Origin: Myxococcota bacterium
Lineage (GTDB): Bacteria > Myxococcota_A > Polyangia > Nannocystales > Nannocystaceae
Reading direction: 5' to 3'
Assembly: GCA_039028615.1 (NCBI GenBank)
Contig: JBCCHT010000014.1
Span: 1-64,000 of the forward strand
DNA length: 64,000 nucleotides
The notes under the pieces were generated by a model. The model worked only from the letters and a program-made list of their open reading frames with translations. It did not search any database and had not been told where the DNA came from. Positions 1 to 14,982 of the stretch are shown here, in pieces; position 1 is the first letter of the stretch; the number at the start of each line of letters is the position of its first letter. Position numbers and translations under genes: made by a program.

Positions 1-3000
1 CATCGAGTCCAACGCGTCGGAAAGCCTATTCAACAACCAGCCTCGCTCGGCGTCGGACCAAGGCTGCTTCGTCACACCTTCGATGAGTTCCAAACGTGCT
101 TTGGCCCACCCCCTCCGTCTGAACGCCTCGCTCAGCGTGGCGACAGTCGCGCGTGCTTTGGCCCATAGCTCTGCTGCCAACGCCTGCTCGAGCAGCTCTC
201 GATGCGAGGCCTCGGGCGCCCCTTCGCTGCACACCTCATCCCAGTATTCGACGAGCACGGCCCGCCCTGCCTTCGACCACGGCGGCCCGTCGGTGCGGCG
301 CTCGACCACCTCTCGGACGAACGGGTGCACGCCCCACCGCTGCTCCTGCATGCTCGTCAACAGACCCCGTGACCGCAGGGCATCGGCGCCATCCCCCATA
401 CGTCGCACCACATCGAGCGGTACCGGCAGCCCAATGCCACAGCACTCGCCCAGCAGCACCAATGCCTCGGGCCGCTGGCGTTCCAACAAGGTCTCGAGCA
501 GCAAGTCGGCCCCCGCCCTTTCGGGCAGCCCCGCCAAGGCCGGCTCCAACACCTCGCGGCGAATCGTGTCGACGGAGCTGCCGGTCAGCGAAAGCCCGGT
601 CTGTTCCTCCCATCGCGCCGCCTGCTGTCCCACCAACTCGTTGGTCCACTCCACCGCACGTGGGTGGCCCTCCATTCGGCCGGAGACCAGCTCTTCGCGG
701 AGCACGGGCGGCAGCGCTTTCAACCAGCGGTGCCATCGCGTCATCCGCAGCATCTCGCCCTCCGAACAGGGCTCGATCGGGATCCACTTCCCCTCGGTCT
801 CGGCGGGCTGATAGCGGGTGGTCAACAACACGGTGGTGTCGGAGGGCACGGCTTCGCATATCGCCTGAAAGAACTCGGCCACCTCGGCCGAGCGCCACGG
901 CACCCGATCTCGAGCCCCGTCCATCGCCGCTCGCTCGACCTGCATGGTCTCACCGTTGTCGATGTACAAGACGCCTCCCCGGCCGACCGAGCGCACCAGC
1001 TGGGCGAGTGCCCGCCCGCGCGAGGCTGGCCCCTCGTCCCGCTCGATGGCGTCCAGCCGAGCACTCCAGTCCGCGGGGCACGAGGGATGCGCGAGCACGG
1101 TTTGGTTGACGAACTCGCGCAGTACCGAGAAAGGATCAGCGTGTAGCTGCTCCTGCCCGTCGAGGTGCTGCAGCGGGAGCATCAGCGCCCGGTCCTGCCA
1201 GCTCGGTCCCCCCTTGGTCTGCGTGTCGGTCAACAACACGCGCGCCACCTTCATCATCGTGGCCGTCTTGCCCAAGCCACCCAGGCCAAACAGCCCCAGA
1301 ACCCGCTCCCCTTTCCTGCGTTCCTGGCGAAGTCGCGCGAGCAGGCGTCGCCGACCGATGAAGCCGAGACCGAGGTCCTTCAGCCCGTAGAGTTTTTCGG
1401 CGCCCGGCTCGAGCAGGTGGCGCTCCAATTCCGGGGGCGGCGGCTGGTCCACGTCGACCAAGGGGACATTCGGTCCGCGGTGGTAGAGGCTCAGGAGCGT
1501 CCACGACAGCGGAAACCGAGCCCACCCCTTGCGGGTGTCGATGGGACGCTGGGTCCGTAGCCGGGCCTTGCGGACGGCATCGAGGGTGGAACCGGTTTCG
1601 GCCAGCCCCTCGAACAAGCGTCGGTCGACGGCCACCGCCAGCGGGTCCGGTACGGGGCCGAAGTAGCCGAGGATCTGGGGGATCCCCGCGCGGTGCAGGT
1701 CGGCGGCAATCGATGGTGAATCCGCTCCCGCCCCTCCCCACTCCCTCGCGCGATCGTCCTCGGAGGCAGGCTTGCCACTGCCGGCCCCGTAGCAACACGA
1801 CAACCAGATCGCCTCGGGCAGCTTGCCCATCGCGTCCCGCAGGGTCTCGAGCAGGCGTTTGGCAGGAACCTCGTCGGGTCCGCCGTCGTTGTTCTCGAAC
1901 ACCAGCTGCCCCGGGATGCCGTGACCAGCGAAGTGCAGCACGACCGCCGATTCGCCATCGACTTTGGACGCGCGGTCGACCGCTGATACGCGCTTGGCCG
2001 CTTCACGCAGGTCCTCGAGCGTTCCCATCTCCGTAAACAGCGCCTGGCCCTCGACCTCGAGCAACGCACGGGACATGCGATAGCTGGCTTCTTCGAGGTT
2101 GAGCTCCGGCAAACCGGGGCCCTTGGGGGCCGCAACGTGGGCAACCACCGACAACCTTGGAAGGGTCCCACGGCGGTTCTGGTCCTCGGTCAACCCCGGT
2201 ACGACTGCCTCCCGCACGATGTGCACCTCCCCTCGGGCCACGGGGAAACGGTCGCCCAGCATCAGCAGCTCCCACGGCAGCACCAAAGCGTTGTTGGCCG
2301 CCTTGTCGTCACCGTGGACCTGAATTCGCACCAGAGCCGCGTCCTGCCCGGCGGATCTGGCCGCCAGCGCCTGGAGTACCTCGAGCCCCGCGGGCGGCAA
2401 CAACTCGGTGAGCGCCTGGCCGACGGATTTCGCCAGCTGCTGCATCTGGGACTCCACCGCCACGCTGCTCTGGTCGACATAGGCACCGCGTTCGTCACAG
2501 GGCAGTCCCTGCCCCGCACACTTCCGCAAGAGAGTCAGCATCTCTTTCAAATCGGGCGGGTCGACGTCGTGTTCATGGCCAGCGGCTTCGATCCGCCACC
2601 GCGCCTCTTCGGCGTGAATCGTGATGCAAAGCTCCCCCTCGCTCTGCTCGCGCTCGGCGACCGCCTCGGCTGCGGCGGCCTGGAAGACGCGCGGCAACAT
2701 CTCGACCGAGGGCAGCTCCAGAACTTGCAGCACATCCCCGTAGCGCTCGCGTGCGGTCCGACCGTCGTGCAGCGGCTCGTCCAGCGCTTCGGCTTCTCCC
2801 GGACTCATGAGCGCCACCCACGTGTTGAGTTCCTCGCGTTGCGCCTCAGTGAGCCCATCCACCCACTCGAGCAAGCGCGGGTCGAGCATCGAGCATCCCA
2901 CGAACAACACTGGATGCCTGGCCAGCAGCAGGTCGAGCTGGCCTTTCAGGAAGCGATAGCGATCTTCGAACGGGGTTTGGCCCTCGGAGGTCAGCACGAT

Positions 3001-3507
3001 CTCCGACCAGTCGGTCATGTCGCCGTAGATCGACAAGTACCAGCACCCTTGCCCCGGGCGCTTCAAGTTGCGCTCGAGAGAGCTGTGGGTATGCGGAGCG
3101 CGAAGCTCCTGCATGGCTCGGCGCAGCAGCAGGTCGTAGTTGGTGTCGACAATGAACGGGAAGGTCTGCGCCCAAGCCAGGCTGGCCAAGTGGTGATGCA
3201 GCGGCCCGGGCTGCGAGTCCTGGCCGTCGGGTCGCAGGCGGTGCTCGAGGTAGCTGCGAAGCTCGCTCTTTCGGTAGATCCGCTGCTCCAGCCCCCGCTC
3301 GAATGCCGCATACGGCTCCTCGACCTCCGGCATCTTCTTCCAGCCGATCGGCGCTTCGCGCATTCCCTCGGCCAGCTGCCGCAGCGTGGGCAAGGGCGGG
3401 TTAGCTTGGCCACTCACGCCCTCGCCGATCCACAGCGTGGGTTTTCGGCCTAGCTGGCGCTCGAGGACTTCGAGGAGATGGGGAGGGAGCTTCTCGGAGG
3501 CGACCAT
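1..3507 (-). CDS. SIR2-like (degenerate)-CHAT-STAND NTPase(-TPR) NLR-like protein, 3' end outside window; paralogue of 10495..14982
   Basis: Not in the ORF track because the frame is open to the left edge. Manual translation from ATG 3507 gives MVASEKLPPHLLEVLERQLGRKPTLWIGEGVSG...DTNYD...LSIYGD...HFAGHG...WLSCCYG...GLGGLGKT...VLYIDNGE...SDALDSM, colinear with 10495..14982. Confidence 0.93.
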   Translation of the reverse strand, partial: MVASEKLPPHLLEVLERQLGRKPTLWIGEGVSGQANPPLPTLRQLAEGMREAPIGWKKMPEVEEPYAAFERGLEQRIYRKSELRSYLEHRLRPDGQDSQPGPLHHHLASLAWAQTFPFIVDTNYDLLLRRAMQELRAPHTHSSLERNLKRPGQGCWYLSIYGDMTDWSEIVLTSEGQTPFEDRYRFLKGQLDLLLARHPVLFVGCSMLDPRLLEWVDGLTEAQREELNTWVALMSPGEAEALDEPLHDGRTARERYGDVLQVLELPSVEMLPRVFQAAAAEAVAEREQSEGELCITIHAEEARWRIEAAGHEHDVDPPDLKEMLTLLRKCAGQGLPCDERGAYVDQSSVAVESQMQQLAKSVGQALTELLPPAGLEVLQALAARSAGQDAALVRIQVHGDDKAANNALVLPWELLMLGDRFPVARGEVHIVREAVVPGLTEDQNRRGTLPRLSVVAHVAAPKGPGLPELNLEEASYRMSRALLEVEGQALFTEMGTLEDLREAAKRVSAVDRASKVDGESAVVLHFAGHGIPGQLVFENNDGGPDEVPAKRLLETLRDAMGKLPEAIWLSCCYGAGSGKPASEDDRAREWGGAGADSPSIAADLHRAGIPQILGYFGPVPDPLAVAVDRRLFEGLAETGSTLDAVRKARLRTQRPIDTRKGWARFPLSWTLLSLYHRGPNVPLVDVDQPPPPELERHLLEPGAEKLYGLKDLGLGFIGRRRLLARLRQERRKGERVLGLFGLGGLGKTATMMKVARVLLTDTQTKGGPSWQDRALMLPLQHLDGQEQLHADPFSVLREFVNQTVLAHPSCPADWSARLDAIERDEGPASRGRALAQLVRSVGRGGVLYIDNGETMQVERAAMDGARDRVPWRSAEVAEFFQAICEAVPSDTTVLLTTRYQPAETEGKWIPIEPCSEGEMLRMTRWHRWLKALPPVLREELVSGRMEGHPRAVEWTNELVGQQAARWEEQTGLSLTGSSVDTIRREVLEPALAGLPERAGADLLLETLLERQRPEALVLLGECCGIGLPVPLDVVRRMGDGADALRSRGLLTSMQEQRWGVHPFVREVVERRTDGPPWSKAGRAVLVEYWDEVCSEGAPEASHRELLEQALAAELWAKARATVATLSEAFRRRGWAKARLELIEGVTKQPWSDAERGWLLNRLSDALDSM

Positions 3508-3516
3508 CGACCCCGA

Positions 3517-3544
3517 TATGCGACGGCGTGCTCGGAATGATCTG
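3517..3544 (-). promoter_or_regulatory. CAGATCATT-N15-CATA putative ECF promoter, copy 1 (upstream of left NLR-like gene)
   Basis: AATGATCTG at 3536-3544 and TATG at 3517-3520 with a 15-nt spacer; the same motif occurs three more times in this locus. Confidence 0.65.
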
Positions 3545-3564
3545 CCGATTCCGAGATTTCTTGC

Positions 3565-5427
3565 TCATTTCTGCAGCAAGAAGCGCCGCCTCAGCATCGT
3601 GATCTTCGCCCCTGACGATCGATATCGGCGCTGTCGGTCCGCAAGGGGTGCGCCAGGGTCGTCAGGCTCCGCCGTGCTCAGGAGCGAGAAGGTGAGCGGC
3701 CGATTGCTCACCACCGCGACGAGTTCTTCGACGCGCTGGGTTCCACTCGCGGTCTCTGGCCATCCGAAACGAAGCGGGGACCGTGGTGTGCCGACGCGAA
3801 GCGAGGGCGAATCACGGGTGAGCGTCGCGCCACCGTTCGCCAGGCCGCCACCGAGGATCGAAATGCCACGATCGGCCCGAATCCGAAACACCCCTGCATG
3901 AGATGGCCAGCCTCGCTCGCGATCGACGACCTCGATCCACAACGGCGTATCCGACGTGACCCGAGGATTGCCACGTGGCCATTGGGCCTCGTCGTCGCCG
4001 TTCCAGGTGCCCCAGCGAAGGTCGAAGTGCCCATCTCGCCAGCTAGGCACGGTTCGTTCTACTGCCAACCATCCATCGACTACCGCAAGCGTCTCGGCCC
4101 AGCGAAGCCACGTGTCGACCTCGTCATCGGAGGTTCGAGCCAGTGCTTCGCCCCACGCATCGCGCACGACCACGTCCGAGTTCTCGAGTGCGAGGCCCAT
4201 GGGGCTCTTCTGCGGTCGATTTCGAGACCGCGATCCGAGCTCTCGAACGCAACTGACTTTGCCCTCGAGTCCGCTTCGTACTCGGGCTCGGCACTCGGCA
4301 TCGCCTCCCCAGAGCTCCACGGCCATCGTTCGCGCCAGGTTTCGGCGTGCGGCCCAAGCAAACTCCTGCTCCTCCAGGAGGTCTGCCCCGCCGGCTTCGA
4401 CCCGCACGCCAAGGGTGCCTTCGTGCTCGACTACCGAGCCCTGCACCGTGGGCGGCAGTGCGAGCGACCCCGTCAATGCGACCCGCTGTGCTGCCCTCCA
4501 ACCCGACGCCTCGGCCATCTCCGGGATCCACACGTCGCCCTGCCGAGCACACGGAGTCCATCCGCGAGGCCGCGCAATCCGAAGCCCGGTGCGAGGTACG
4601 ACATCGCATGGGCCACTGGTCGCCGGAGACTGTGTCTTGCGGTCCCACCTCGCCCTGACCCGATCCATCACCGCCCACCACGGCTCCTCACCGTGTGCGG
4701 TCAGCATGTCGACCAGCGCGTGCGTGAACAGTCCGACCTCGCCGCTTCGCCGCCCGCCAGCGACTTCGTCGCGCCCCGCAGCCATGACCCAGGACACTCC
4801 AGCCGAATGCTGTCCTGGCACCGTACTTCGCTCGTACCAGCTCGCGATGTGAGCCAGGAGCTCGGACTGAGTTTCCTTGGACTCGGGCCACGCGAACGGC
4901 ATGCCCGCCGCGTGGCAACAATCCAATACGATCGAGACGTGCGACGCGGTCGGCGAGTCCAGCTGCGCCGCGGTCGAGAGTTCATCGGCCCCAACGCGTT
5001 CGGCCAAGGCCTCGAGCCATGCCACTAGTTCGTCCGCGATGATGAACCGCTGCTCTGGCGTCAGGTCGTCTCGTCTCGCGTCCATCGTCGTCAACGTCGA
5101 AACAACCTCATTGCCTTCTTCGGTCTCCTGCGTCACTTGGAGACCGTGCCCCGCGTAGTACACGAGCACCCGATCCCCACCGCGAACATCGGCTTGCATC
5201 GAGTCAAACGCCTCGCTGATGGCAGCCTTGCTGGCGCAGCCCCAGTGCTGGACTGTTTCGTAGTTTGAGCCGAGCCAGCCGGCCATTCGCGCCAAGCACC
5301 CCGCTACGCCCCCGAGTTCGTCGAGCGGCACGCCGATGAGCAACGCATGCGCGCGAGATTCGGCGTCGCCAACCGTACGAAGCCAGCGCACCTCGTCGCC
5401 CGATCCCGAGGCCTGCTCCTCGGTCAC
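3565..5427 (-). CDS. Caspase-family (peptidase C14/metacaspase) protein with C-terminal beta-rich (DUF4384-like) region
   Basis: HALLIGV, YYAGHG (His), VLDCCHA (Cys), GLFTHAL motifs. The GTG start at 5427 overlaps the upstream TGA (GTGA). Confidence 0.88.
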   Translation of the reverse strand: MTEEQASGSGDEVRWLRTVGDAESRAHALLIGVPLDELGGVAGCLARMAGWLGSNYETVQHWGCASKAAISEAFDSMQADVRGGDRVLVYYAGHGLQVTQETEEGNEVVSTLTTMDARRDDLTPEQRFIIADELVAWLEALAERVGADELSTAAQLDSPTASHVSIVLDCCHAAGMPFAWPESKETQSELLAHIASWYERSTVPGQHSAGVSWVMAAGRDEVAGGRRSGEVGLFTHALVDMLTAHGEEPWWAVMDRVRARWDRKTQSPATSGPCDVVPRTGLRIARPRGWTPCARQGDVWIPEMAEASGWRAAQRVALTGSLALPPTVQGSVVEHEGTLGVRVEAGGADLLEEQEFAWAARRNLARTMAVELWGGDAECRARVRSGLEGKVSCVRELGSRSRNRPQKSPMGLALENSDVVVRDAWGEALARTSDDEVDTWLRWAETLAVVDGWLAVERTVPSWRDGHFDLRWGTWNGDDEAQWPRGNPRVTSDTPLWIEVVDRERGWPSHAGVFRIRADRGISILGGGLANGGATLTRDSPSLRVGTPRSPLRFGWPETASGTQRVEELVAVVSNRPLTFSLLSTAEPDDPGAPLADRQRRYRSSGAKITMLRRRFLLQK

Positions 5428-5801
5428 GGAGGCCCCCCCGCACCTTCGTCGAGTACTCGAAAGTAGCCACCGCCGCGTGGTGTGGGACCAGAGTTGTTGG
5501 TGTTGTGAACCTCGACGACAAACTCGGTCCCATGGGTGTACGGAGTGGACTCTTGGTGCGCCCCACCAATGTCGCTCCATTGGTCGAACGACTCGCCGCA
5601 TTCGTCCACAGCGTGGACCTCGGTAATCGTCGCGTGCACTGCCGTTGTTTGGCCCTTGATCTTGAATACGGCGGTCTGCCCCTCCGACGCCTTCACCTTC
5701 ACGTGGTGCCCTCGGGGATCCGCAGTCGCGCCTGCAACCGACGTCATCGTCACACCGTCGACATCGATGTCGACCTCAATTTCCACGATCTTCTTGCTCA
5801 T
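5424..5801 (-). CDS. Small beta-rich hypothetical protein (125 aa), translationally coupled to the caspase
   Basis: ORF MSKKIVEIEVDIDV... with AAGGA upstream; its stop overlaps the caspase start. Confidence 0.7.
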   Translation of the reverse strand: MSKKIVEIEVDIDVDGVTMTSVAGATADPRGHHVKVKASEGQTAVFKIKGQTTAVHATITEVHAVDECGESFDQWSDIGGAHQESTPYTHGTEFVVEVHNTNNSGPTPRGGGYFRVLDEGAGGPP

Positions 5802-5866
5802 CTCACTACGTCCTTTCATCCGGCGCCACTGGCCCGGTACTGTCACTACTGGTTTTCGATCGGGGT

Positions 5867-5883
5867 CAGCCTCGTCGAGGCTG
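5867..5883. terminator. Palindrome/stem-loop downstream of the kinase gene
   Basis: CAGCCTCG-T-CGAGGCTG inverted repeat just after the kinase stop; no clear U-tract. Confidence 0.3.
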
Positions 5884-5896
5884 CCCCGTGTTCACT

Positions 5897-8800
5897 TCAA
5901 CATCCTCGATCGATCCACGTCGCCATCTCTTCAAGCAAGGGTTCGTATCCCTCGTCGTCGAGTCCAGCGAAGAAGTCACGGGCATCCCGGGCACCCCGGA
6001 GGGCTTGCTCGGGCTCGGTCGAACACGAGGCCTGCGCCAACCACCACCGCGCATGTGCTAGCCGTTCGGGGTTGTCCCCGCTTTCGGTCCACTGCTCGAC
6101 CGCGGGCTGAAGCGCCACGATAGCCTCGGCATCGCGCCCGAGCTTCACCAGGGTCTCACCCCATCCCAACGACATCTCAGGGAAGTACGGGTGCGTTCGG
6201 AGGGCCGGGTCTGCGAGGAACGGCGGCACCGCTTGCTGATACAGGAGGTCTGCGCTGCGAAGATCGCCACGCCGAACGTGCGCTTGAGCGAGCTGACCAC
6301 GACCGATGTTGATGCTGACCTCGTCCGCCTCGCCCGAGCCCACTTGAAGCGCCAGCGCTCGCTCGAGCACGGGAACGGCCTGCTCGAACTGCCCCGCGTC
6401 CATGTGCACCACACCGATGGCCTCCAGCGCCCCCAGCCGACGCATATCGTCTCGACCATGGCGCTGGATCAGAATCTCGTCCGCGACGGTAGCGTGTTGC
6501 AGCGCAGCCTCGAACTTCCGCTGTAGATCCAAGACGCGAACCATCGCGATGTGCAGGCGAGCGACCCGGTCACTCCGCGGGCCCATCCCCGCTTCGGCAA
6601 GCTCCAGCGCCCGGCTGAGTTCTCGCTCCGAGGCCTCGAGGTCTCCTTTCTCGAGGTATCGGTAGCTCAGGTTGGCGTGCACTTTGTAGAGCGTCGGATG
6701 CTCGGCCCACAGCGCCGACGCCCAGAGTTTTTGGGCCGCCCGCAACGTCTCGATGGCGGCATCCGTGCGGCCGAGCCGAGCCTCGGAGGTACTCGAGTTG
6801 AGCATGGCGTGCGCCACCGCCAAGGGCATGGCCGGCTCGACTTCCGAGCGGATCGCGATCGCCTGACCAAAGAGTTCGAGTGCTCGTTCGTGCTCGCCGT
6901 TGCGCTGGAGCACCAAGGCACGGCTGTTGAGGGCCTCGGCCCGGCGCGCCCCGTCGATGCCCATGCGCTCGACCTTCTCGAGGGCGACCTGCGACGCCCG
7001 GCCGGCCTCCGCCGTGGACCCGTGCAGGTCGAGCGCGTGCGCCTTGGCCCACAACGCGAGCGCCTCCGAGCCGAGCCCGTCGCAACCGAGCGTCTCGGCC
7101 TGCGAGCGCGCGGCATCCAGCTGCTCACGAGCAAGATCGAGCCGCTGCGCCTCGAGAGCCAATCGCCCCCGAACGAGTCGAAGCCGGGCCCGAAGCGGCG
7201 CGAGAGCGTCCCCCTGTGCCTGCTCCAACGCCTTCGCGATCGAGGTCAGCGCTTCGTCGAACTGTCCTCCCACGGCAGCGGCGACCGCTCGATGTTCGAG
7301 GGCCTGCACCTGCTGCAACTGGGAAGTCGGCGCCAGTAGGGCCTCCGTCTGTTCGCACGCATCTCGCGGTCCCTCATCGCGCATCCGTTGAAGGGGCCCG
7401 ATGAGGCGCACGGGGACGGCAGACAGATCGCGGTCCGCGTCGATGTCCGCCAACGAGTCTACGATCCGGCGCAACGCATCGTGATCCCCGTGAAGGCTCG
7501 CGAGCTCCGATCGGCGAACAGCAGAGGACTCGTCTGCCGCACACACTCGCTCGAGTCTCAGATCGAGCGCCGCGGTCGTTTCCTCGAGCATGACGTCCAC
7601 CGCATCGAAGGTCGGTTCGGCCTCGGTCGAACCGGTCGCGAGGAACTCGGCGCGTACAGACTCGCGGGCTTCGCTTCCCCACAGGGATCGGGCGGAGTGC
7701 AGGTCATCGCATAGCCCGGGCGATGCACTCGATGACATCAGCATCGCGCTGAGACCGGCCGCCACGACCCCGCCCGGCAGCAGCACGAGCGGCCACCGAC
7801 GACGAGGGGAGCGCACAGCTGCCAGCGCTCGCAACAGCTCGGCCATGTCGCCATAGCGACGGGAAGGATCGTGCTGCAAGCCGCGGGCGAGCACCTGAAC
7901 CATCCCGCGGGGTACCGAAGGAGCCGAACGCCCGCGAACGTGCCGCCGACGCATCGGCATGGCATCGGTGGCCGCGATCGCGCCCGAGGCCGCCGACTCG
8001 ACCTCTCGCCCAAACGGAGGCGTGGCCTGCTGGTCCGACTCTAGAGATTGGGGCCGCGTGAGCGACAACGGCGGGCGCCCTCCATAGATGGCCTCGAACA
8101 GGGTCACGCAGAAGCTGAACTGGTCACTGCGAGCATCCGCCGTCCCTCGCACATGCTCCGGCGCCATGTAGCCCACCGTCCCGGGCGCACCGTGGGCCCG
8201 CGTCGAATCCTCGGCCAGGCTCACGGGGGCACCCGACTGCACGATCGCAATCCCGAGGTCTACGAGCTTGGATCGCCGCCCCCGGGTAATGACGATGTTG
8301 TGCGGCTTGACGTCGCGATGGACGACCTCGGCCTCGTGCAACGCGGCCAATCCCTCGCCGATGGGGGTGAGCACGTCGACCACCGTCTTCCAGTCGCGCG
8401 GCTCCCCGTCGAGCCACTCGTGCAGAGGAACGCCGTCGACCAGCTCCATCACCAAGAAGGGATGGCCCGTCTCGTCCTCGCCCACCTCGTGCACGGTGAC
8501 CACATTGGGATGCGAGACGCGGGCGAGCGCTTGCCCTTCGCGGAGCAGCTGCTCCTTGCGCTGCCCCGCGGCCACCGCCAAGCGCTTGAGCGCGACCTCT
8601 CGGTCGAGCGTCGGATCTTCCGCGACGTACACCGCGCCCTGCCCCCCGGTACCGACCTGAGAGACGAGCCGGAATCGACCGATCATCATCAAGTCCGGGG
8701 CGCTGTCGCCAAACAGCGTGCGTGCACACTCGGCTCGAAGCCGCCGCATCTCCAGGTCCTCCGGGGGCAGTGCCGGGGGGGTTACATCTCGGGAAGCCAT
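5897..8800 (-). CDS. Membrane Ser/Thr protein kinase with C-terminal TPR sensor region
   Basis: GTGGQGAV, VALK, HPNVV, HRDVKPHN, DLG, GTVGYMAPE; TM segment WPLVLLPGGVVAAGLSAML; TPR-like helices. Start set at ATG 8800 because the longer ORF overlaps the sigma gene. Confidence 0.92.
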   Translation of the reverse strand: MASRDVTPPALPPEDLEMRRLRAECARTLFGDSAPDLMMIGRFRLVSQVGTGGQGAVYVAEDPTLDREVALKRLAVAAGQRKEQLLREGQALARVSHPNVVTVHEVGEDETGHPFLVMELVDGVPLHEWLDGEPRDWKTVVDVLTPIGEGLAALHEAEVVHRDVKPHNIVITRGRRSKLVDLGIAIVQSGAPVSLAEDSTRAHGAPGTVGYMAPEHVRGTADARSDQFSFCVTLFEAIYGGRPPLSLTRPQSLESDQQATPPFGREVESAASGAIAATDAMPMRRRHVRGRSAPSVPRGMVQVLARGLQHDPSRRYGDMAELLRALAAVRSPRRRWPLVLLPGGVVAAGLSAMLMSSSASPGLCDDLHSARSLWGSEARESVRAEFLATGSTEAEPTFDAVDVMLEETTAALDLRLERVCAADESSAVRRSELASLHGDHDALRRIVDSLADIDADRDLSAVPVRLIGPLQRMRDEGPRDACEQTEALLAPTSQLQQVQALEHRAVAAAVGGQFDEALTSIAKALEQAQGDALAPLRARLRLVRGRLALEAQRLDLAREQLDAARSQAETLGCDGLGSEALALWAKAHALDLHGSTAEAGRASQVALEKVERMGIDGARRAEALNSRALVLQRNGEHERALELFGQAIAIRSEVEPAMPLAVAHAMLNSSTSEARLGRTDAAIETLRAAQKLWASALWAEHPTLYKVHANLSYRYLEKGDLEASERELSRALELAEAGMGPRSDRVARLHIAMVRVLDLQRKFEAALQHATVADEILIQRHGRDDMRRLGALEAIGVVHMDAGQFEQAVPVLERALALQVGSGEADEVSINIGRGQLAQAHVRRGDLRSADLLYQQAVPPFLADPALRTHPYFPEMSLGWGETLVKLGRDAEAIVALQPAVEQWTESGDNPERLAHARWWLAQASCSTEPEQALRGARDARDFFAGLDDEGYEPLLEEMATWIDRGC

Positions 8801-8859
8801 GAGTTGCCGTTGTCCGTGCCCCCGTAGTGGGCCGCGCCCCTCGAATTGATCGCCCGATT

Positions 8860-9552
8860 CTACGAAGCGGCCGAAGATTTTTGGGACGGCGGTGGAGTAT
8901 CCGACTCGTCGGGCGCCATCTCGTCCGCGAGGGCCTCGACTTCGGACCACCACTGCCGCAGCAACGTCGTCGAAGTCCGCGTACTCCCCGGCTCGATGCG
9001 CTCCAGCGCCTCGAGCTCCTTCTCGAGCGCGGCCCGGGCCCGACGGAGCTGCCCCGCAATGGTGGCGCGAGACCGCCCGAGCAAATCTCCCACCTGGGTC
9101 TCGGTCATGCCCGCGAAGAACTTCAAGTAGAGCAGCAGCTGCGGATCGCAGACCGTAGGCTCCGGCTGCCGTGCGCCCAGGCGCCGCATGGCTCGCAAGA
9201 CCCCGCGGCGGTCTTCGTGCAGCGACGCGAGGTACTCGACATCGTCCTCGTGCACCGTGGGCTCGGCCGCCAGCGTCTCGGAGTCGTCCGTCACGGGGGC
9301 TCGCGCCCGCTTGTTGCGAAACGCAAACACTCGGCGACGGGCGATCGTGAACAGCAGGCCGCGACCGTGGTCGATGGTGCGCTCGGGCTTGGCCGCGAGC
9401 CACTCGAGGAGCTGTTCGAAGGTCTGCTGCAGGAGATCCCGGGCCTCGACCTTCGCCATGGGAAGCATGGCCCGAAAGAACGCCAACAACTCTTCGCTGT
9501 GCTGAACGAAGAGCTCGGCGGCCTGCGCACGGCGGTCGTCGTTCGGAGACAC
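8860..9552 (-). CDS. ECF sigma-70 factor 1 with C-terminal extension
   Basis: Region 2 (EARDLLQQTF...LLFTIARRR) and region 4 HTH (LKFFAGMTETQVGDLLGRSRATIAGQLRRAR). Start codon approximate (GTG 9552 or 9558). Confidence 0.87.
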   Translation of the reverse strand: MSPNDDRRAQAAELFVQHSEELLAFFRAMLPMAKVEARDLLQQTFEQLLEWLAAKPERTIDHGRGLLFTIARRRVFAFRNKRARAPVTDDSETLAAEPTVHEDDVEYLASLHEDRRGVLRAMRRLGARQPEPTVCDPQLLLYLKFFAGMTETQVGDLLGRSRATIAGQLRRARAALEKELEALERIEPGSTRTSTTLLRQWWSEVEALADEMAPDESDTPPPSQKSSAAS

Positions 9553-9611
9553 TGGCACGATTGTATCGCAAGGGTGACATGTCGGGCCGCGAAAACGAGG
9601 GGTCACGGGGG

Positions 9612-9720
9612 TATGCGTCGCCGGGCACGAAATGATCTGCGCGGCGGCGATTTTTTTCGGTGGCACCCAGACCCGAGAAAATTGCCGCCGCACAGATCAT
9701 TGTTCAGGCGGCCGCACATA
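9612..9720. promoter_or_regulatory. Back-to-back divergent promoters forming a ~30-bp-arm inverted repeat (motif copies 2 and 3)
   Basis: AATGATCTGCGCGGCGGCGATTTTTTTCGG (9631-9660) versus CCGAGAAAATTGCCGCCGCACAGATCATT (9673-9701). Each has CATA exactly 15 nt downstream in its own direction (9612-9615 and 9717-9720). Confidence 0.75.
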
Positions 9721-9735
9721 TCGGTAGTGCGCCCG

Positions 9736-10422
9736 ATGTCCGATCCCAGCCCCCTCGCTCGCCACGACCGGCTCGCCCGCCAGCTCTACGCGGCCCACAG
9801 TGAGCAGTTGCTCGCCTTCTTCGGCGCGGCTCACCGCGCGGGGCCCCTCGAGGCGGTGGACCTGCTGCAGCAGACGTTCGTGGAGTTGATGTCGACCCTG
9901 AAGCGACGGCCGGATCTCGAGCTTCGACATCCTCGGGCCTTCCTTTTCAAGATCGCGGTCCGTCAGCGCATGGCCGAGCTTGCCCAGGCGCGGCGGCAAC
10001 CGGGTATCGAGCCCGAGGTCTCGCCCGAGGGGCTACCCGCCGTGGCCGAGGCCGACGATCTGGAGTGGATTGCGATCCGGCACGGGGAGCATCGCCAGCT
10101 GTTTCGGGCCTTGAGGCACTTGTCGGCCGAGGACCGCTCGTCCGCGGAACGTGACCCCATGTTGCTGTATCTGCGTTTCTGGGCCGGATTGACCTTGGCC
10201 GAGGTTGCCGAGGTCCTGGAGATGACCCCCGCGGCCGTGGCCGGGCGGCTTCGACGGGCGTGTCGGCGGCTGAGAAGGCACTTGCGGGAGCTGGAGCGGG
10301 CTGGCGGTGGTCCCTCGACGTCCACCACGGTGCTCCGACGCTGGCAGGACGCCATCGCCCGGACCTCTCTGCATTCGTTGGCATCGAAGGGTCGCAACGA
10401 GGTTCCGAGCGGGGAACGGTAG
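9736..10422 (+). CDS. ECF sigma-70 factor 2, paralogue of 8860..9552
   Basis: 3' part of ORF 8827..10422: EAVDLLQQTF, FLFKIAVRQ, LRFWAGLTLAEVAEVLEMTPAAVAGRLRRA, and tail STSTTVLRRW. Confidence 0.87.
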   Translation: MSDPSPLARHDRLARQLYAAHSEQLLAFFGAAHRAGPLEAVDLLQQTFVELMSTLKRRPDLELRHPRAFLFKIAVRQRMAELAQARRQPGIEPEVSPEGLPAVAEADDLEWIAIRHGEHRQLFRALRHLSAEDRSSAERDPMLLYLRFWAGLTLAEVAEVLEMTPAAVAGRLRRACRRLRRHLRELERAGGGPSTSTTVLRRWQDAIARTSLHSLASKGRNEVPSGER

Positions 10423-10458
10423 CCGCGAGACGGGTGAGCGAGAAAAACTCGACGACGG

Positions 10459-10486
10459 CAGATCATTTCGAACGCGCCGCCGCATA
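10459..10486 (+). promoter_or_regulatory. CAGATCATT-N15-CATA putative ECF promoter, copy 4 (upstream of right NLR-like gene)
   Basis: CAGATCATT 10459-10467, CATA 10483-10486, ATG at 10495. Confidence 0.65.
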
Positions 10487-10494
10487 TCGGGTCG

Positions 10495-13400
10495 ATGGTC
10501 GCCGCAGAGACTCTCCCCTCCGACATTCTCGACGTTCTCGAGCGCGTGCTCGGCCGCAATCCCACGCTTTGGATCGGCGCGGGTGTCAGTGCTCAGGCCG
10601 CCCCTCCCCTGCCCACGCTGTGGCGGCTGGCCGAGGGGTTGCGGGAGGCGCCCATCGGCTGGAAGAAGATGCCCGAGTTCGATGACCCCTATGCCGCGTT
10701 CGATGAGGGGCTGAAACAGCGGATCTTCCGAAAGAACGAGCTGCACACCTACCTCGAAAAGCGCCTGCGACCCGACGGCAAAGACCCGAAACCGGGGCCC
10801 TTGCATCACCACCTCGCCAGCTTGGCTTGGGCGCAAACGTTCCCGTTCATTGTCGACACCAACTACGACCTGCTGCTGCGACGGGCCATGCAAGAGATTC
10901 ACGCTCCGCATACCCACAGCACGCTGGAGCAGAACCTGACGCGGCCAGGCAAAGGGTGCTGGTATCTGTCGATCCATGGCGACGTGACCGACTGGTCGAA
11001 AGTTGTCCTGACCTCGGACAGCTACGATGGCTTCGACGATCGCTATCGGTACTTGAAAGGACAGCTCGACCTTCTGCTCGCCCAACACGCCGTGCTGTTC
11101 TTGGGCTGCTCGATGCTCGACCCGCACCTGCTGGATTGGCTCGACGGGCTCGGTCTGGAGCGGCGATCCAAGCTCAACACCTGGGTTGCGCTGGTGGGCC
11201 CGGGCGGGACCGATACGCTGAAGCAGCAGACCTACAAGGGGCAATCCGTGTTCGATTTCTACGGCGACCTGCTCCACGTGCTCGAATTGCCCTCGTTCAA
11301 GCTGCTGCCCCGGCTGTTTCAGTCGCTGGCCTCCTCCGCTGTGGCAACGCGCGAGGCGAACGAACGCAGGCTGACTATCGATATACACGCCGACTCGACG
11401 CCGTGGCGGATCGAGGCCGGAGGTGAAACCCACGAGGTCGACCCGCCCGACCTGGGAAAGGCGCTGGTGGGTTTGCGAACGTTCGCCGGAAAAGGACTGC
11501 CGTGTAACGACAAGGGAATCTGCATCGACCCGAGCGGCACAGTCCTGGAGAACGAAATGCAACAGCTGGCGCGATCTACTGGACAGACACTGACAGGACT
11601 CTTACCTCCCGCAGGGCTCGGGATCCTCGAGCGGATTGCCGGCAACGCAGCAAGTCGTGGTCCAGCTCTGGTCAGCGTACGTGTCCACGGCGAAGAAGCG
11701 AAGGCCAACAACGCACTGGTCCTCCCCTGGGAGCTGCTGATGCTTGGTAGCCGTTTCCCGGTCGCTCTCGGCGAGGTCCACATCGTGCGCGAGGCAGTAA
11801 CTCCCGGCGTGACCGAGGGCCTCGACCCCAACGAGGAACCGCCAGCGCTCTCGGTAGTCGCTCACGTCGCGGCTCCCAAAGCACCCAACTTGCCCGAACT
11901 CAACCTCGAAGAAGCCAGCTATCGCATGGCCCGAGCGCTGACCCGGATCGAGGGGCAAACCCTCTTCACGGAGATGGGGACCCTCGAGGATCTAGGCAAG
12001 GCGGTCCACCGCGTATCCCCCGTCGTGCTTCATTTCGCCGGTCATGGTCTACCTGGGAAGCTCGTCTTCGAGGATGAAGATTGTGCACCCCACGGCGTCA
12101 CCGCCAACGAGTTGCTCATCGCTCTACGTCTGCAGAAAACCACACTCCCGCGAGCAATCTGGCTTTCGTGTTGTTACGGTGCAGGCCCGGGAAAACCAGC
12201 AGCTGGGGACACTCCGAGTCGAGCACGAGAATGGGGCGTGATGGCGTCGGAGTCCCCATCGATCGCTGCTGATCTGCACCGTGCGGGGATACCTCAGATC
12301 CTCGGCTACTTCGGACCAGTGCCCGACCCGCTCGCGGTGGAAGTCGACCGGCATTTGTTCGAGGGACTCGCTGAAACCGGCTACACCCTCGAAGCGGTGC
12401 GACAGGCTCGACTGCGGACCCAACAGGCAATCGACACGGGCAAAGGCTGGGCCCGATTCCCTCTCGCGTGGACCTTGCTCAGCCTCTACCATCGCGGCCC
12501 CAATCTCCCGCTGATCGACGCTACAAAGACACTCCCAAAAGCAACTGCGGCGAGACTAGTGCCCGAGCCCGAAAAGGTCCAAGGCCTCGACGTACTGGGT
12601 TTCGGCTTCATCGGCCGTCGGCGTTTGCTCGCCCGGCTTCGGCGGGAATGGGGACAAAATCACCAACGAGTGCTGGGTCTATACGGCCTCGGCGGCCTCG
12701 GCAAGACGGCGACGATGATCCGGCTGTGCCGCGTGCTGCTATCGGGAGAGCTTGTCGAGAACGAGCAATGGCAGGACAAAGCCCTCGTGCTGCCCCTTCA
12801 ACTGGTCGACGGCCAGGAGCAACTTCGCACCGAGCCCTTTGCCGTGCTGCGCGAGCTCGTCGACACGATGGTCGAGGGGCATCCGCTGTGCCCCCCCGAC
12901 TGGAACGAACGCCTCGACGCGATCGAGCAAGCCGACGAACAGTCGTCTCGCGGCCGGGCCCTCGCCGAGTTGGTGCTGTCGGTGTGCAAGGGCGGCGTCT
13001 TGTACATCGACAACGGCGAGACGATGCAGGTCGAACGAACCGAGATGGACGGTGAGCTCGACAAGGTTCCCTGGCGCTCCGAAGAGGTTGCGGCGTTCTT
13101 TCGGACGGTGTGTGGCGCGCGTCTTCCCGAGACCACCGTGCTGCTGACCACGCGCTACCGTCCCGCGGACACGCCGGGATGGTGGGCGCCCATCGAGCCC
13201 TGCTCGAAGGACGAGATCTTTCGGATGACGCGGTGGCATCCGTGGCTGCGACGGCTGCCGCCCGTGCTTCGGGAAGAGCTGGTCAGCACTCGCCTGGCGG
13301 GCCATCCGCGGGCGGTGAAGTGGGCCAACGCGCTGGTGGAGGAACAGGCGCAGCGATGGCAGGAGGACTGCGGGCAGTCGCTGCGCGAAGACCTGCCCAG

Positions 13401-14982
13401 CGATCGGGTCCGCCGCGAAGTGCTGGAGCCCGCGCTGGAAGGGCTGCCCGACAAAGCGGCGGCCGACTTGCTGCTCGAGACCCTGCTCGAGCGGCAAACG
13501 CCCGAGGCGTTGGCGCTGCTGGGCGAGTGCTGTGGCATTGGCTTGCCGGTACCGTTTCAGGTGGTGCGGCGGATGGGGGATGGTGCCGATGCCTTGCGGT
13601 CACGAGGGTTGTTGACGAGCATGCAGGAGCAGCAGTGGGGCGTGCACCCGTTCGTCCGAGAGGTGGTCGAGCGGCGTATCGACGGGCCGCCATGGTCGAA
13701 GGCAGGGCGGGGCGTGCTCGTCGACTACTGGGAGAACGTGTGTAGTAAGGGGGCGCCCGAGGCCTCGCATCGAGAGCTGCTGGAGCAGGCGTTGGCAGCA
13801 GAGCTGTGGGCCAAGGCTCGAGCTACGGTCGCCACACTGGAGGAGGCGTTCAGACGGAGGGGGTGGGCCAAGGCACGCCTGGAACTCATCGAAGGAGTGA
13901 AAGAGCAGCCTTGGCCCGACCCCGAGCGGGACTGGTTGCTTTACACGCTGTCCGACGCGTTGGACTCGATGGGTCGGTACGACGAAGCTGAGCAGGCCAT
14001 TCGGCAGAGCCTGAAGCTGTCGGAACGCGTACACGGGACACGGGAGCACGGCTCGGTGGCGGCATCGCTGCATGGGCTGGCCAACGTCCTCGAGAATCTG
14101 GGGAGGTACGAGGAGGCGAAGGAGGTGTACGAGGAGTCCATCTCCATCCAGGAGGGTGTGTACGGGACACGGGAGCACGGCTCGGTGGCGAGTTCACTGC
14201 ATGGGCTCGCCAACGTCCTCGGTCGTCTGGGGAGGTACGAGGAGGCGAAGGAGGTGTACGAGGAGTCCATCTCCATCAAGGAGCATGTGTACGGGACACG
14301 GGAGCACGACTCGGTGGCGAGTTCACTGCATGGGCTCGCCAACGTCCTCGTTGTTCTGGGGAGGTACGAGGAGGCGAAGGAGGTGTACGAGGAGTCCATC
14401 TCCATCACGGAGCGTGTGTACGGGACACGGGAGCACGGCGAGGTGGCGGCATCGCTGAGTGGGCTGGCCAACGTCCTCGTTCGTCTGGGGAGGTACGAGG
14501 AGGCGGAGGAGGTGTACGAGGAGTCCATCTCCATCCTCGGGCGTGTGTACGGGACACGGGAGCACGGCTCGGTGGCGGCATCGCTGCATGGGCTCGCCAT
14601 CGTTCTTGTGCGGTTGGGGAGGTACAAAGTGGCGGAGCGAGCGTTCCGTGAGGCCCTCGCCATCCAGGAACGAGTGTTTGGCTCCCGCCGTACTCCCGCG
14701 AGCATTTTGACGCTCGTCGTGTTCGCCAAGGTTCTCGTGCAACACCAACGCCCGCACGACGCACTGCCGCTGGCCCGAGACGGGTGGGAAGGTGCGCTCG
14801 AGCACAACTCACTGCTCGACGCGGTTCAGGCCGGTCCCATCTATGCCGTCACGCTCGCCAGGGCAGGCCAAGAGGACGAAGCCCAGCAAGTCCGCGCGAC
14901 CGTCGTTCAGCTGCTTCAGCAACTGCCCGAAGGCCACCCGGTCCGTGTGCTCGTGGAAAAGGAGTTGCGTCTGCTGCAATGA
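10495..14982 (+). CDS. SIR2-CHAT-STAND (NB-ARC-like) NTPase-TPR NLR-like protein, 1495 aa
   Basis: SIR2 motifs WIGAGVS, DTNYD, SIHGD, LFLGCSMLD; CHAT motifs LPWELL, HFAGHG, LSCC; FIGRRR, Walker A GLGGLGKT, Walker B VLYIDNGE, LLTTR, GHPRAV; tandem TPRs. Confidence 0.95.
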   Translation: MVAAETLPSDILDVLERVLGRNPTLWIGAGVSAQAAPPLPTLWRLAEGLREAPIGWKKMPEFDDPYAAFDEGLKQRIFRKNELHTYLEKRLRPDGKDPKPGPLHHHLASLAWAQTFPFIVDTNYDLLLRRAMQEIHAPHTHSTLEQNLTRPGKGCWYLSIHGDVTDWSKVVLTSDSYDGFDDRYRYLKGQLDLLLAQHAVLFLGCSMLDPHLLDWLDGLGLERRSKLNTWVALVGPGGTDTLKQQTYKGQSVFDFYGDLLHVLELPSFKLLPRLFQSLASSAVATREANERRLTIDIHADSTPWRIEAGGETHEVDPPDLGKALVGLRTFAGKGLPCNDKGICIDPSGTVLENEMQQLARSTGQTLTGLLPPAGLGILERIAGNAASRGPALVSVRVHGEEAKANNALVLPWELLMLGSRFPVALGEVHIVREAVTPGVTEGLDPNEEPPALSVVAHVAAPKAPNLPELNLEEASYRMARALTRIEGQTLFTEMGTLEDLGKAVHRVSPVVLHFAGHGLPGKLVFEDEDCAPHGVTANELLIALRLQKTTLPRAIWLSCCYGAGPGKPAAGDTPSRAREWGVMASESPSIAADLHRAGIPQILGYFGPVPDPLAVEVDRHLFEGLAETGYTLEAVRQARLRTQQAIDTGKGWARFPLAWTLLSLYHRGPNLPLIDATKTLPKATAARLVPEPEKVQGLDVLGFGFIGRRRLLARLRREWGQNHQRVLGLYGLGGLGKTATMIRLCRVLLSGELVENEQWQDKALVLPLQLVDGQEQLRTEPFAVLRELVDTMVEGHPLCPPDWNERLDAIEQADEQSSRGRALAELVLSVCKGGVLYIDNGETMQVERTEMDGELDKVPWRSEEVAAFFRTVCGARLPETTVLLTTRYRPADTPGWWAPIEPCSKDEIFRMTRWHPWLRRLPPVLREELVSTRLAGHPRAVKWANALVEEQAQRWQEDCGQSLREDLPSDRVRREVLEPALEGLPDKAAADLLLETLLERQTPEALALLGECCGIGLPVPFQVVRRMGDGADALRSRGLLTSMQEQQWGVHPFVREVVERRIDGPPWSKAGRGVLVDYWENVCSKGAPEASHRELLEQALAAELWAKARATVATLEEAFRRRGWAKARLELIEGVKEQPWPDPERDWLLYTLSDALDSMGRYDEAEQAIRQSLKLSERVHGTREHGSVAASLHGLANVLENLGRYEEAKEVYEESISIQEGVYGTREHGSVASSLHGLANVLGRLGRYEEAKEVYEESISIKEHVYGTREHDSVASSLHGLANVLVVLGRYEEAKEVYEESISITERVYGTREHGEVAASLSGLANVLVRLGRYEEAEEVYEESISILGRVYGTREHGSVAASLHGLAIVLVRLGRYKVAERAFREALAIQERVFGSRRTPASILTLVVFAKVLVQHQRPHDALPLARDGWEGALEHNSLLDAVQAGPIYAVTLARAGQEDEAQQVRATVVQLLQQLPEGHPVRVLVEKELRLLQ
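14030..14640 (+). repeat. Near-identical 129-bp coding tandem repeats (43-aa TPR units)
   Basis: Unit starts CTGGGGAGGTAC at 14098, 14227, 14356, 14485 and a variant at 14614. Confidence 0.95.

Follow-up and report, generated by a model that had tools for sequence, protein, structure and literature searches.

The window analysed here, the first 64,000 nucleotides of contig C14 (G000:C14:1-64000) of a Nannocystaceae genome assembly (G000; 12.27 Mb, 68% GC, 94 contigs), encodes two homologous NLR-like receptors, NLR-A and NLR-B, in which a SIR2 domain is followed by a CHAT protease domain, a STAND NTPase and tetratricopeptide repeats (TPR). The SIR2 domain of NLR-A carries five substitutions at conserved positions and is probably dead as an NADase, and its protease and NTPase motifs are kept. 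We consider the chances about even that NLR-A is a co-regulated protease-only receptor, in which one of two outputs would have been lost. The receptors and the substituted positions are:

1..3507, minus strand: NLR-A, with a degenerate SIR2 followed by CHAT, STAND and a helical region; 1169 codons, frame open to the contig end, TPR tail at G000:C13:3-755
2653..3507, minus strand: NLR-A SIR2 domain, aa 1-285 (Pfam SIR2_2, E 5.6e-16, 59.4 bits against a cut-off of 24.5)
1534..2283, minus strand: NLR-A CHAT protease domain, aa 409-658 (Pfam CHAT, E 1e-10, 42 bits); H529 and C572 kept
658..1410, minus strand: NLR-A STAND NTPase, around aa 700-950; both Walker motifs retained (A, GLGGLGKT; B, LYIDNGE)
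10495..14982, plus strand: NLR-B, SIR2-CHAT-STAND-TPR, 1495 aa (Pfam SIR2_2, CHAT, TPR)
3421..3423, minus strand: A29E in the GAGxS loop, GEGVS (GAG codon; GCG in NLR-B at 10579); Ala in 93% of 76 family rows
3298..3300, minus strand: D70E; column 92% conserved
3025..3027, minus strand: H161Y, YG for HG (TAC codon; CAT in NLR-B at 10975); the His aligns with DSR2 H171
2977..2982, minus strand: S176G (2980-2982) and Y177Q (2977-2979) in the LTxxSY loop

The SIR2 pocket of NLR-A

The initial annotation had reported A29E and H161Y, and the codon comparison with NLR-B bears both out; the motifs WIGEGVS, SIYGD, DTNYD, HFAGHG and LSCC, Walker A and B and the reading frame are also as it described. 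It had missed D70E, S176G and Y177Q, three further losses that occur in NLR-A only. One base change each suffices for A29E and H161Y. NLR-A reads GEGVS in place of GAGxS and YG in place of HG or NG, and it has the TxNxD motif (DTNYD) with its catalytic Asn. N123, Y124, D125 and G204-S206 are retained and the domain contains no stop, frameshift or indel. In the SIR2 domain of NLR-B, GAG, N123, H161 and S176-Y177 are intact.

The family set used for comparison consisted of the best 150 of 1007 representatives plus 16 homologues, with two self matches removed, and gave alignments of 78 SIR2, 127 CHAT and 105 NTPase rows, NLR-A and NLR-B included. Those relatives that have a name belong to Nannocystaceae and Myxococcota, as would be expected for a myxobacterium. 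Among the 69 SIR2 domains that were complete at 12 key sites, both receptors again included, position 161 is His in 67 and Tyr in two (NLR-A and P0154), and position 29 is Ala in 63, Ser in two, Pro in two and Glu in two (NLR-A and P0043). When only conserved columns (at least 80% conserved) were considered, NLR-A alone departed at 5/41 columns of the SIR2 domain versus 0/86 of CHAT and STAND (Fisher p 0.003), and NLR-B alone at 1/41 (R211H) and 1/86.

The two receptors share 70% identity across 1155 aligned residues, with 75% in SIR2, 66% in STAND and 80% in the TPR tails. Both have the STAND/NLR-like layout of effector, P-loop NTPase and repeat sensor, as indicated by the Walker A and B motifs and by TPRs, which lie in NLR-B itself and on contig C13 for NLR-A; Pfam assigned no NTPase family to either receptor, and homologues match AAA_16. 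The His and Cys residues of the CHAT domains (H529 and C572 in NLR-A, H517 and C560 in NLR-B) are presumably the catalytic dyad. A structure model of NLR-B(1-680) formed a single unit (predicted local distance difference test, pLDDT, 85; predicted template modelling score, pTM, 0.82). The fold of its first domain matches ThsA (Z 22.7), DSR2, KomC and Avs5 (Z 18.1), and that of its second matches SAVED-CHAT (Z 20.6), separase and Csx29 (CHAT range Z 19.6-20.6; 8tl0, 7y9x). For NLR-A the SIR2_2 fold is supported by the Pfam score and by the 75% identity to the modelled NLR-B domain.

According to the available excerpts of the respective papers, DSR2 H171A abolishes NADase activity (PMC11087589, PMC11263360, PMC11290490), and ThsA H152A abolishes NAD binding and cleavage and also disturbs the oligomer (PMC7272460). 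The initial annotation regarded the GAGxS loop and the HG histidine as required. For the His this agrees with DSR2 and ThsA, but the requirement is not absolute: Avs5, in the part of the report consulted, is an active NADase with NG replacing HG and is dead as N153A or N153Q (10.1101/2025.07.08.663546). The literature consulted contains no test of a Tyr at the HG position or of a Glu in the GAGxS loop, and the latter should oppose phosphate binding. The DSR2 equivalents of D70, S176 and Y177 (D189/Y190 and A48) are not discussed in the excerpts of the DSR2 literature consulted, and what points to the importance of these residues is co-degeneration only. In the 11 other rows that lack N123, Y124 or H161, Y177 is lost in nine versus 3/55 intact rows, and S176 in five versus 6/55, the rows being non-independent. 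P0043, P0054, P0057, P0066, P0145, P0146, P0151 and P0154 are among the degenerate proteins of the family.

It is improbable, in our judgement, that the NLR-A domain has a low or different activity, or that it has come to sense a nucleotide (ADP-ribose or a similar product of NLR-B) and thereby switches on its own CHAT domain. Such changed chemistry would fit the retained N123, Y124, D125 and G204-S206, the YG shared with P0154 and the activity of Avs5 with its HG His replaced. Nucleotide-activated caspase-like proteases also exist (the SAVED-CHAT fold match mentioned above and, in an excerpt of the source, a TIR-caspase system). On the other hand, the two Avs5 mutants are dead, ThsA H152A loses NAD binding, the Glu should repel phosphate, and the degenerate family members have no replacement residues in common, which all speak against changed chemistry.

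We give almost no weight to an artefact, either a read or assembly error or a truncated gene. The assembly is metagenome-derived, its contig breaks within NLR-A, and only one of the three listed runs (X1) contained the stretch. X1 is possibly the source sample, so that its Logan contigs represent a second assembly rather than a second sample, and these contigs drop rare variants; there was no RNA run among the listed holders of the stretch. However, the X1 contigs cover 308-3151 at depth 14.9 and 3133-10869, from the start of NLR-A to the start of NLR-B, at depth 15.5 and have 0 discordant letters. In view of their agreement over all five sites, which include a multi-base change, we reject read error, and the substitutions withstand this objection.

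Truncation of NLR-A was likewise rejected. NLR-A leaves contig C14 exactly at the onset of the 43-residue repeats of NLR-B, and contig C13 starts with matching repeats and a stop codon (199/250 aa identical to the NLR-B tail). In three of four genus genomes (G002, G004 and G005; not G001) the tRNA-synthetase gene found at C13:1602-4313 is followed by sequence like that of C14 from 44,740 onward. The repeat tail and this synteny argue that C13 joins C14, and on that join NLR-A is complete, with at least 1419 codons. The 43-aa TPR repeats in NLR-B (from 13972; 13972-14745) and at G000:C13:3-520 are near-identical with few variable positions (ENL/GRL/VVL/VRL/DSL/EHL), a pattern that looks like a shuffled sensor surface.

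Targeted loss, decay and the receptor family

The initial annotation interpreted the substitutions as targeted loss of NADase activity rather than decay. The loss itself is likely and is confined to SIR2, but the sequence comparisons favour targeting only modestly. The per-domain dN/dS that it called for is 0.20 for the SIR2 core, 0.13 for CHAT and 0.22 for the NTPase between the two copies, so that no domain-wide speed-up of SIR2 is seen, although these values pool both branches. The NLR-A SIR2 fold seems otherwise as constrained as that of NLR-B: the 180 less conserved SIR2 columns hold 18 NLR-A versus 20 NLR-B changes, and the tree branches have lengths of 0.21 and 0.17, respectively. Lineage-specific SIR2 changes number 24 in NLR-A and 22 in NLR-B with 10 outgroups, and 17 and 10 with the closest outgroup only, neither difference being significant.

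Several results weigh against targeting. With 22 outgroups the lineage changes become 32 and 22 (p 0.22), and uniform placement of 20-30 changes predicts 3.7-5.6 losses in conserved columns, where five were observed. The likelihood ratio of targeted over domain-wide relaxed change is small (3.5-4.0) and reverses to 0.21 when all 14 unpolarised changes are assigned to NLR-A. Gene conversion between the copies, discussed below, may moreover inflate the apparent constraint on the NLR-A domain. NLR-B itself has D instead of T at position 121 and the rare R211H (11125-11127; column 96% conserved, change unseen in 76 other rows), so its own NADase activity is not to be assumed.

These numbers are compatible with early decay, in which selection on the NLR-A SIR2 domain or on the whole gene would have lapsed recently with NLR-B redundant, leaving a dead domain without a role that is on its way to being lost. 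We consider this rather unlikely. It would account for the match with uniform placement, it is the better model if the unpolarised changes belong to NLR-A, and two of the changes lie a single base away. Family members without SIR2 are also common: 80 further CHAT rows have no SIR2 match, and while some are fragments, many are long proteins in which CHAT starts near residue 100. In addition, the pair lies in a ~46-kb island, also carrying VgrG and Rhs genes, that is missing at the corresponding place in three genus relatives. Early decay is opposed by the absence of stop, frameshift and indel, by the lack of excess change in the less conserved SIR2 columns and by the intact upstream motif of NLR-A, and the unchanged conserved columns of CHAT and STAND make decay of the whole gene unlikely. 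Old degenerate SIR2 domains also persist elsewhere, in P0043, P0054 and P0066, with 9-17 departures each, the CHAT and Walker motifs of these proteins being intact.

The last point touches on the family as a whole, in which SIR2 degeneration appears to have arisen five to seven times, mostly with the protease kept. A quick tree of 71 rows (7/78 with fewer than 190 aa were left out) requires seven changes, of which at least five are forced by strong branches. Both domains could be scored in 38 rows: 27 have both intact, in six SIR2 is degenerate and the CHAT dyad intact, three show the reverse (P0034, P0040 and P0056, SIR2 intact and CHAT dyad dead) and two, P0007 and P0018 from one lineage, have both outputs degenerate and Walker motifs intact. 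The Walker motifs are intact in all seven degenerate rows with an aligned NTPase. This mix of losses suggests that the family behaves as a two-output receptor and that members can do without the one output or the other. The doubly degenerate member encoded at L006 (L006:10001-14863) has no neighbouring paralogue within 24.8 kb.

Some further genes were noted. Two tandem CHAT-STAND-TPR genes without SIR2 are present at G268:C181 (L033). The source genome has six further SIR2-domain genes (G000:C23:111030-114734 and five other contig sites), in one of which the SIR2 domain, its GAG/TTNYD/HG motifs intact, is joined to a NACHT-like NTPase. The remainder of the island (15000-44700) encodes VgrG (37958-40228), Rhs with DUF6531 (32283-36530), OmpA-domain and peptidoglycan-binding proteins, a carbonic anhydrase and several family-less proteins.

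The enclosed cassette and the pairing of receptors

Between the two receptors lies a cassette of two sigma factors of the extracytoplasmic function (ECF) type, a kinase, a small protein and a caspase-family protein, and a promoter-like motif occurs four times:

3565..5427, minus strand: gene of the caspase family (Peptidase_C14) with both its His and its Cys motif; putative start
5424..5801, minus strand: conserved cassette protein of 125 aa without a Pfam match
5897..8800, minus strand: Ser/Thr kinase, TPRs at its C-terminus; putative start
8860..9605, minus strand: sigma factor A, ECF type; start placed between 9552 and 9605
9736..10422, plus strand: ECF-type sigma factor B; ~39-40% identical to sigma A
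3518..3542, minus strand: promoter-like motif with the sequence GATCATT-N14-GCAT, 10 bases upstream of the start of NLR-A
9613..9637, minus strand: promoter-like motif before sigma A
9695..9719, plus strand: promoter-like motif before sigma B
10461..10485, plus strand: promoter-like motif, 9 bases upstream of the start of NLR-B

The cassette seems to be restricted to the genus, as close matches to the caspase and sigma A were found in four of five other genus genomes and in 0/67 other family genomes. The gene for the 125-aa protein is translationally coupled to the caspase gene, and the language-model neighbours of this protein include DP-EP (PF08985) clusters at 0.92, a likeness by those features only.

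The pattern GATCATT-N14-RCAT has four matches versus 0.15 expected, but it was derived from these very sites. Genome-wide the fixed-spacer motif has seven matches, including the four at this locus, and 348,665 bases of control loci contained none. At a related locus, G005:C67, three matches in 36 kb precede a receptor operon, a receptor and sigma B, and two of them were seen before the pattern was defined. The motif was not found on contig C88 of the source genome, G002 has a variant only, and a Sigma-70 consensus scan returned 0 promoters. Each of the four copies lies within ~17 bases of a possible start codon, as for a candidate ECF promoter with very short leaders. The motif may be a promoter for the cassette sigmas, and the perfect copy before NLR-A argues for its expression together with NLR-B.

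Two homologous effector genes flank the cassette in 5/6 evaluable loci, or 4/5 without the inferred join in G001; the window itself is counted, and the G003 loci were excluded as their two contigs are too short. The flanking effectors vary by locus, with CHAT as the shared domain. A second cassette copy in the source genome (G000:C88; L037:1-12096) has two divergent CHAT-STAND genes that are 91% identical and have intact motifs as far as the assembly reaches. A third CHAT gene is present on this contig. The codon at which the contig breaks is the same for the two copies, whose 3' parts may thus be identical. At G005:C67:6,400-26,100 (L039, L040) the cassette lies between two convergent CHAT-STAND-TPR genes, both intact, that are 74% identical 5' and 95% identical 3'; two inverted tyrosine integrase genes, 74% identical, are found outside this receptor pair. 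G002:C48 (L041:13932-17644) encodes a SEFIR-CHAT-PNP protein and an inverted partial copy that matches only the SEFIR region. In G001 (C716/C1151; L047, L043) a SEFIR-CHAT protein without PNP is accompanied by a Cys-less CHAT fused to PNP, the join via sigma A being inferred. The SEFIR/TIR-CHAT-PNP effectors of G002:C48 and G001 are thus paired copies with complementary domain loss. G002:C138 has a single CHAT-STAND-TPR gene at its cassette. Pairing would therefore seem to be a habit of the enclosed cassette, including pairs of which both copies are intact. Inversion of the cassette through recombination between the copies is plausible, and no joint of the X1 Logan contigs shows the inverted orientation.

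The history of the pair itself seems to involve recombination between the copies. Identity at four-fold sites forms a mosaic, with 62/101 in SIR2, 104/265 in the middle, 88/118 in the 3' part and 98/122 in the tails, that was reached in 0/200 permutations and suggests an older duplicate whose two ends have undergone gene conversion. In that case the pocket changes of NLR-A are probably younger than the duplication. No close match to NLR-A was found in 40 relatives. An alignment covering SIR2-CHAT matched 3/72 family and 9/400 phylum genomes, none with two copies, with 16 candidates scored per genome in the family and three in the phylum search. In the orthologue search two loci each were matched in genome contigs and in metagenome contigs, and 30 viral loci held only distant SIR2s.

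Another explanation, which has a small but appreciable probability, is that NLR-A co-assembles with NLR-B via SIR2 and STAND surfaces and either damps its NADase (a poisoned oligomer with a higher suicide threshold) or adds a second TPR sensor that triggers NLR-B. The common upstream motif would allow co-expression, gene conversion keeps SIR2 and the 3' part more alike than the middle, and the cassettes of G002:C48 and G001 also have asymmetric effector pairs. SIR2 NADases furthermore work as assemblies, as the available excerpts describe for the DSR2 tetramer (PMC11087589; also PMC10973363, PMC11850899), and Avs5 and ThsA filaments are among the fold matches; wild-type DSR2 mixed with an H171A-tube complex gave activity (PMC11087589, in the part consulted). 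However, no orthologous pair occurs in the 40 relatives or the 72 family and 400 phylum genomes, the pairs at C88 and G005:C67 have both copies intact as far as the assembly reaches, and the degenerate L006 member stands alone. The STAND domains are only 66% identical, the 80% identical TPR tails may make sensors that differ little, and ThsA H152A disturbed oligomerisation (PMC7272460, excerpt).

A wider scheme has a similarly small but appreciable probability. Here the cassette would repeatedly capture an immune effector with a CHAT domain, in the form of two duplicates controlled by the sigma promoters of the cassette. Recombination would preserve the match of sensors and interfaces between the duplicates, one of which loses an output. 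In the window the natural pseudo-sirtuin NLR would co-assemble with its active twin and set the threshold between protease signalling and NAD suicide, as a bacterial paired-NLR system with a pseudoenzyme as one component.

Among the roles offered by the initial annotation for NLR-A (inhibitor, decoy or protease-only signalling arm), the protease-only arm fits best. It is suggested by the SIR2-confined losses without domain-wide speed-up, the repeated loss in the family, the CHAT domain shared among flanking effectors, the kept motif and the single-unit model of NLR-B. The pair would have arisen by local duplication around the sigma-kinase-small protein-caspase cassette. NLR-B would keep both outputs, so that a ligand at the TPRs leads to STAND oligomerisation and then to NAD depletion and proteolysis. 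In NLR-A, ligand binding and STAND assembly would activate CHAT for cleavage of a target in the cassette or elsewhere, most likely feeding the co-transcribed caspase/sigma cassette, and the dead SIR2 domain would be retained as a structural scaffold. NLR-A may in this way form a non-lethal or lower-cost arm. The activity of its protease, its expression, its link to the cassette and any role in defence are what we infer from the sequences. A point against the link is that all four SIR2-CHAT-STAND-TPR loci examined elsewhere (L006, L008, L028, L029/L030) have one copy and no cassette in the stretch retrieved, two of them being cut by a contig end, which implies a protease independent of the cassette.

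Relation to known systems

Avs5 (AVAST type 5; 10.1101/2025.07.08.663546, consulted in excerpt; PDB 9jap, 9nc9) resembles the two receptors in its N-terminal SIR2 of the ThsA/DSR2 type, its STAND NTPase and its C-terminal helical sensor. NLR-A and NLR-B differ from it in having CHAT between SIR2 and STAND, near-identical 43-aa TPR repeats and a duplicate with one degenerate SIR2. Neither receptor matched an Avs profile in PADLOC or any other whole system in PADLOC and NCBIfam. DSR2 and ThsA gave the best fold matches, and the equivalents of N133/Y134/D135/H171 are kept in NLR-B (PMC11087589, PMC11263360, PMC7272460, as far as the excerpts extend). Their host architecture differs, and the Tyr at the His position and the Glu in the GAGxS loop of NLR-A are a natural counterpart of the engineered H171A and H152A. 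The same CHAT fold and His-Cys dyad occur in Craspase TPR-CHAT (Csx29), SAVED-CHAT, Borvo (10.1101/2024.10.26.620412, excerpt) and DdvA. In contrast to those systems, the CHAT domain of NLR-A and NLR-B is fused to SIR2 and STAND, and there is no CRISPR effector, SAVED domain or membrane anti-sigma factor. Craspase and DdvS/DdvA are known examples of a CHAT protease with a sigma factor nearby.

The EACC1/EACC2-caspase systems of multicellular bacteria share a constant caspase-like domain that is combined with varying partners, as well as fusions of STAND to TPR and ECF sigma neighbours, but the part of that account consulted contains no SIR2-CHAT-STAND-TPR protein, no cassette of two sigmas, kinase and caspase and no flanking duplicate effectors (PMC8195603). 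The cassette caspase scored 34 bits against the EACC1-caspase profile, which has a cut-off of 140. A small gene before the left receptor of G005 and the N-termini of the C88 proteins may be EACC1-like.

Head-to-head pairs of sensor and executor NLRs are known from plants, for example RRS1/RPS4 and RGA5/RGA4. Like these, NLR-A and NLR-B are linked and divergent, with one partner predicted to have no working death output. The term head-to-head, used in the initial annotation, is loose nonetheless, since 6,987 bp and five genes separate the two starts. The analogy it drew with plant pairs is weak as well: there is no shared bidirectional promoter but separate motif copies, no integrated decoy and no orthologous pair in the relatives searched, the two are recent duplicates with 70% identity, pairing goes with the cassette, also where neither copy is degenerate, and L006 is degenerate and solitary.

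No description of a SIR2-CHAT-STAND-TPR family, of a natural pseudo-SIR2 NLR or of this cassette was found in open-licence PMC and bioRxiv texts, whose supplements (e.g. that of PMC8195603) may list the architecture; the cassette is apparently undescribed. Together with the promoter-like motif, the flanked cassette suggests that a transcriptional circuit links the sigma factors, the kinase and the caspase to the NLR effectors. To our knowledge, bacterial NLRs have one output each, mostly ending in cell death. The SIR2-CHAT-STAND-TPR family would have two outputs per chain, with members dropping one or the other. With the same scaffold and five pocket changes, NLR-A and NLR-B could serve as a natural experiment: they may show if proteolytic signalling by a bacterial receptor is possible without death of the cell, and they bear on a potential role of pseudoenzyme partners in adjusting NLR-driven suicide, a role that such partners have in plants and animals.

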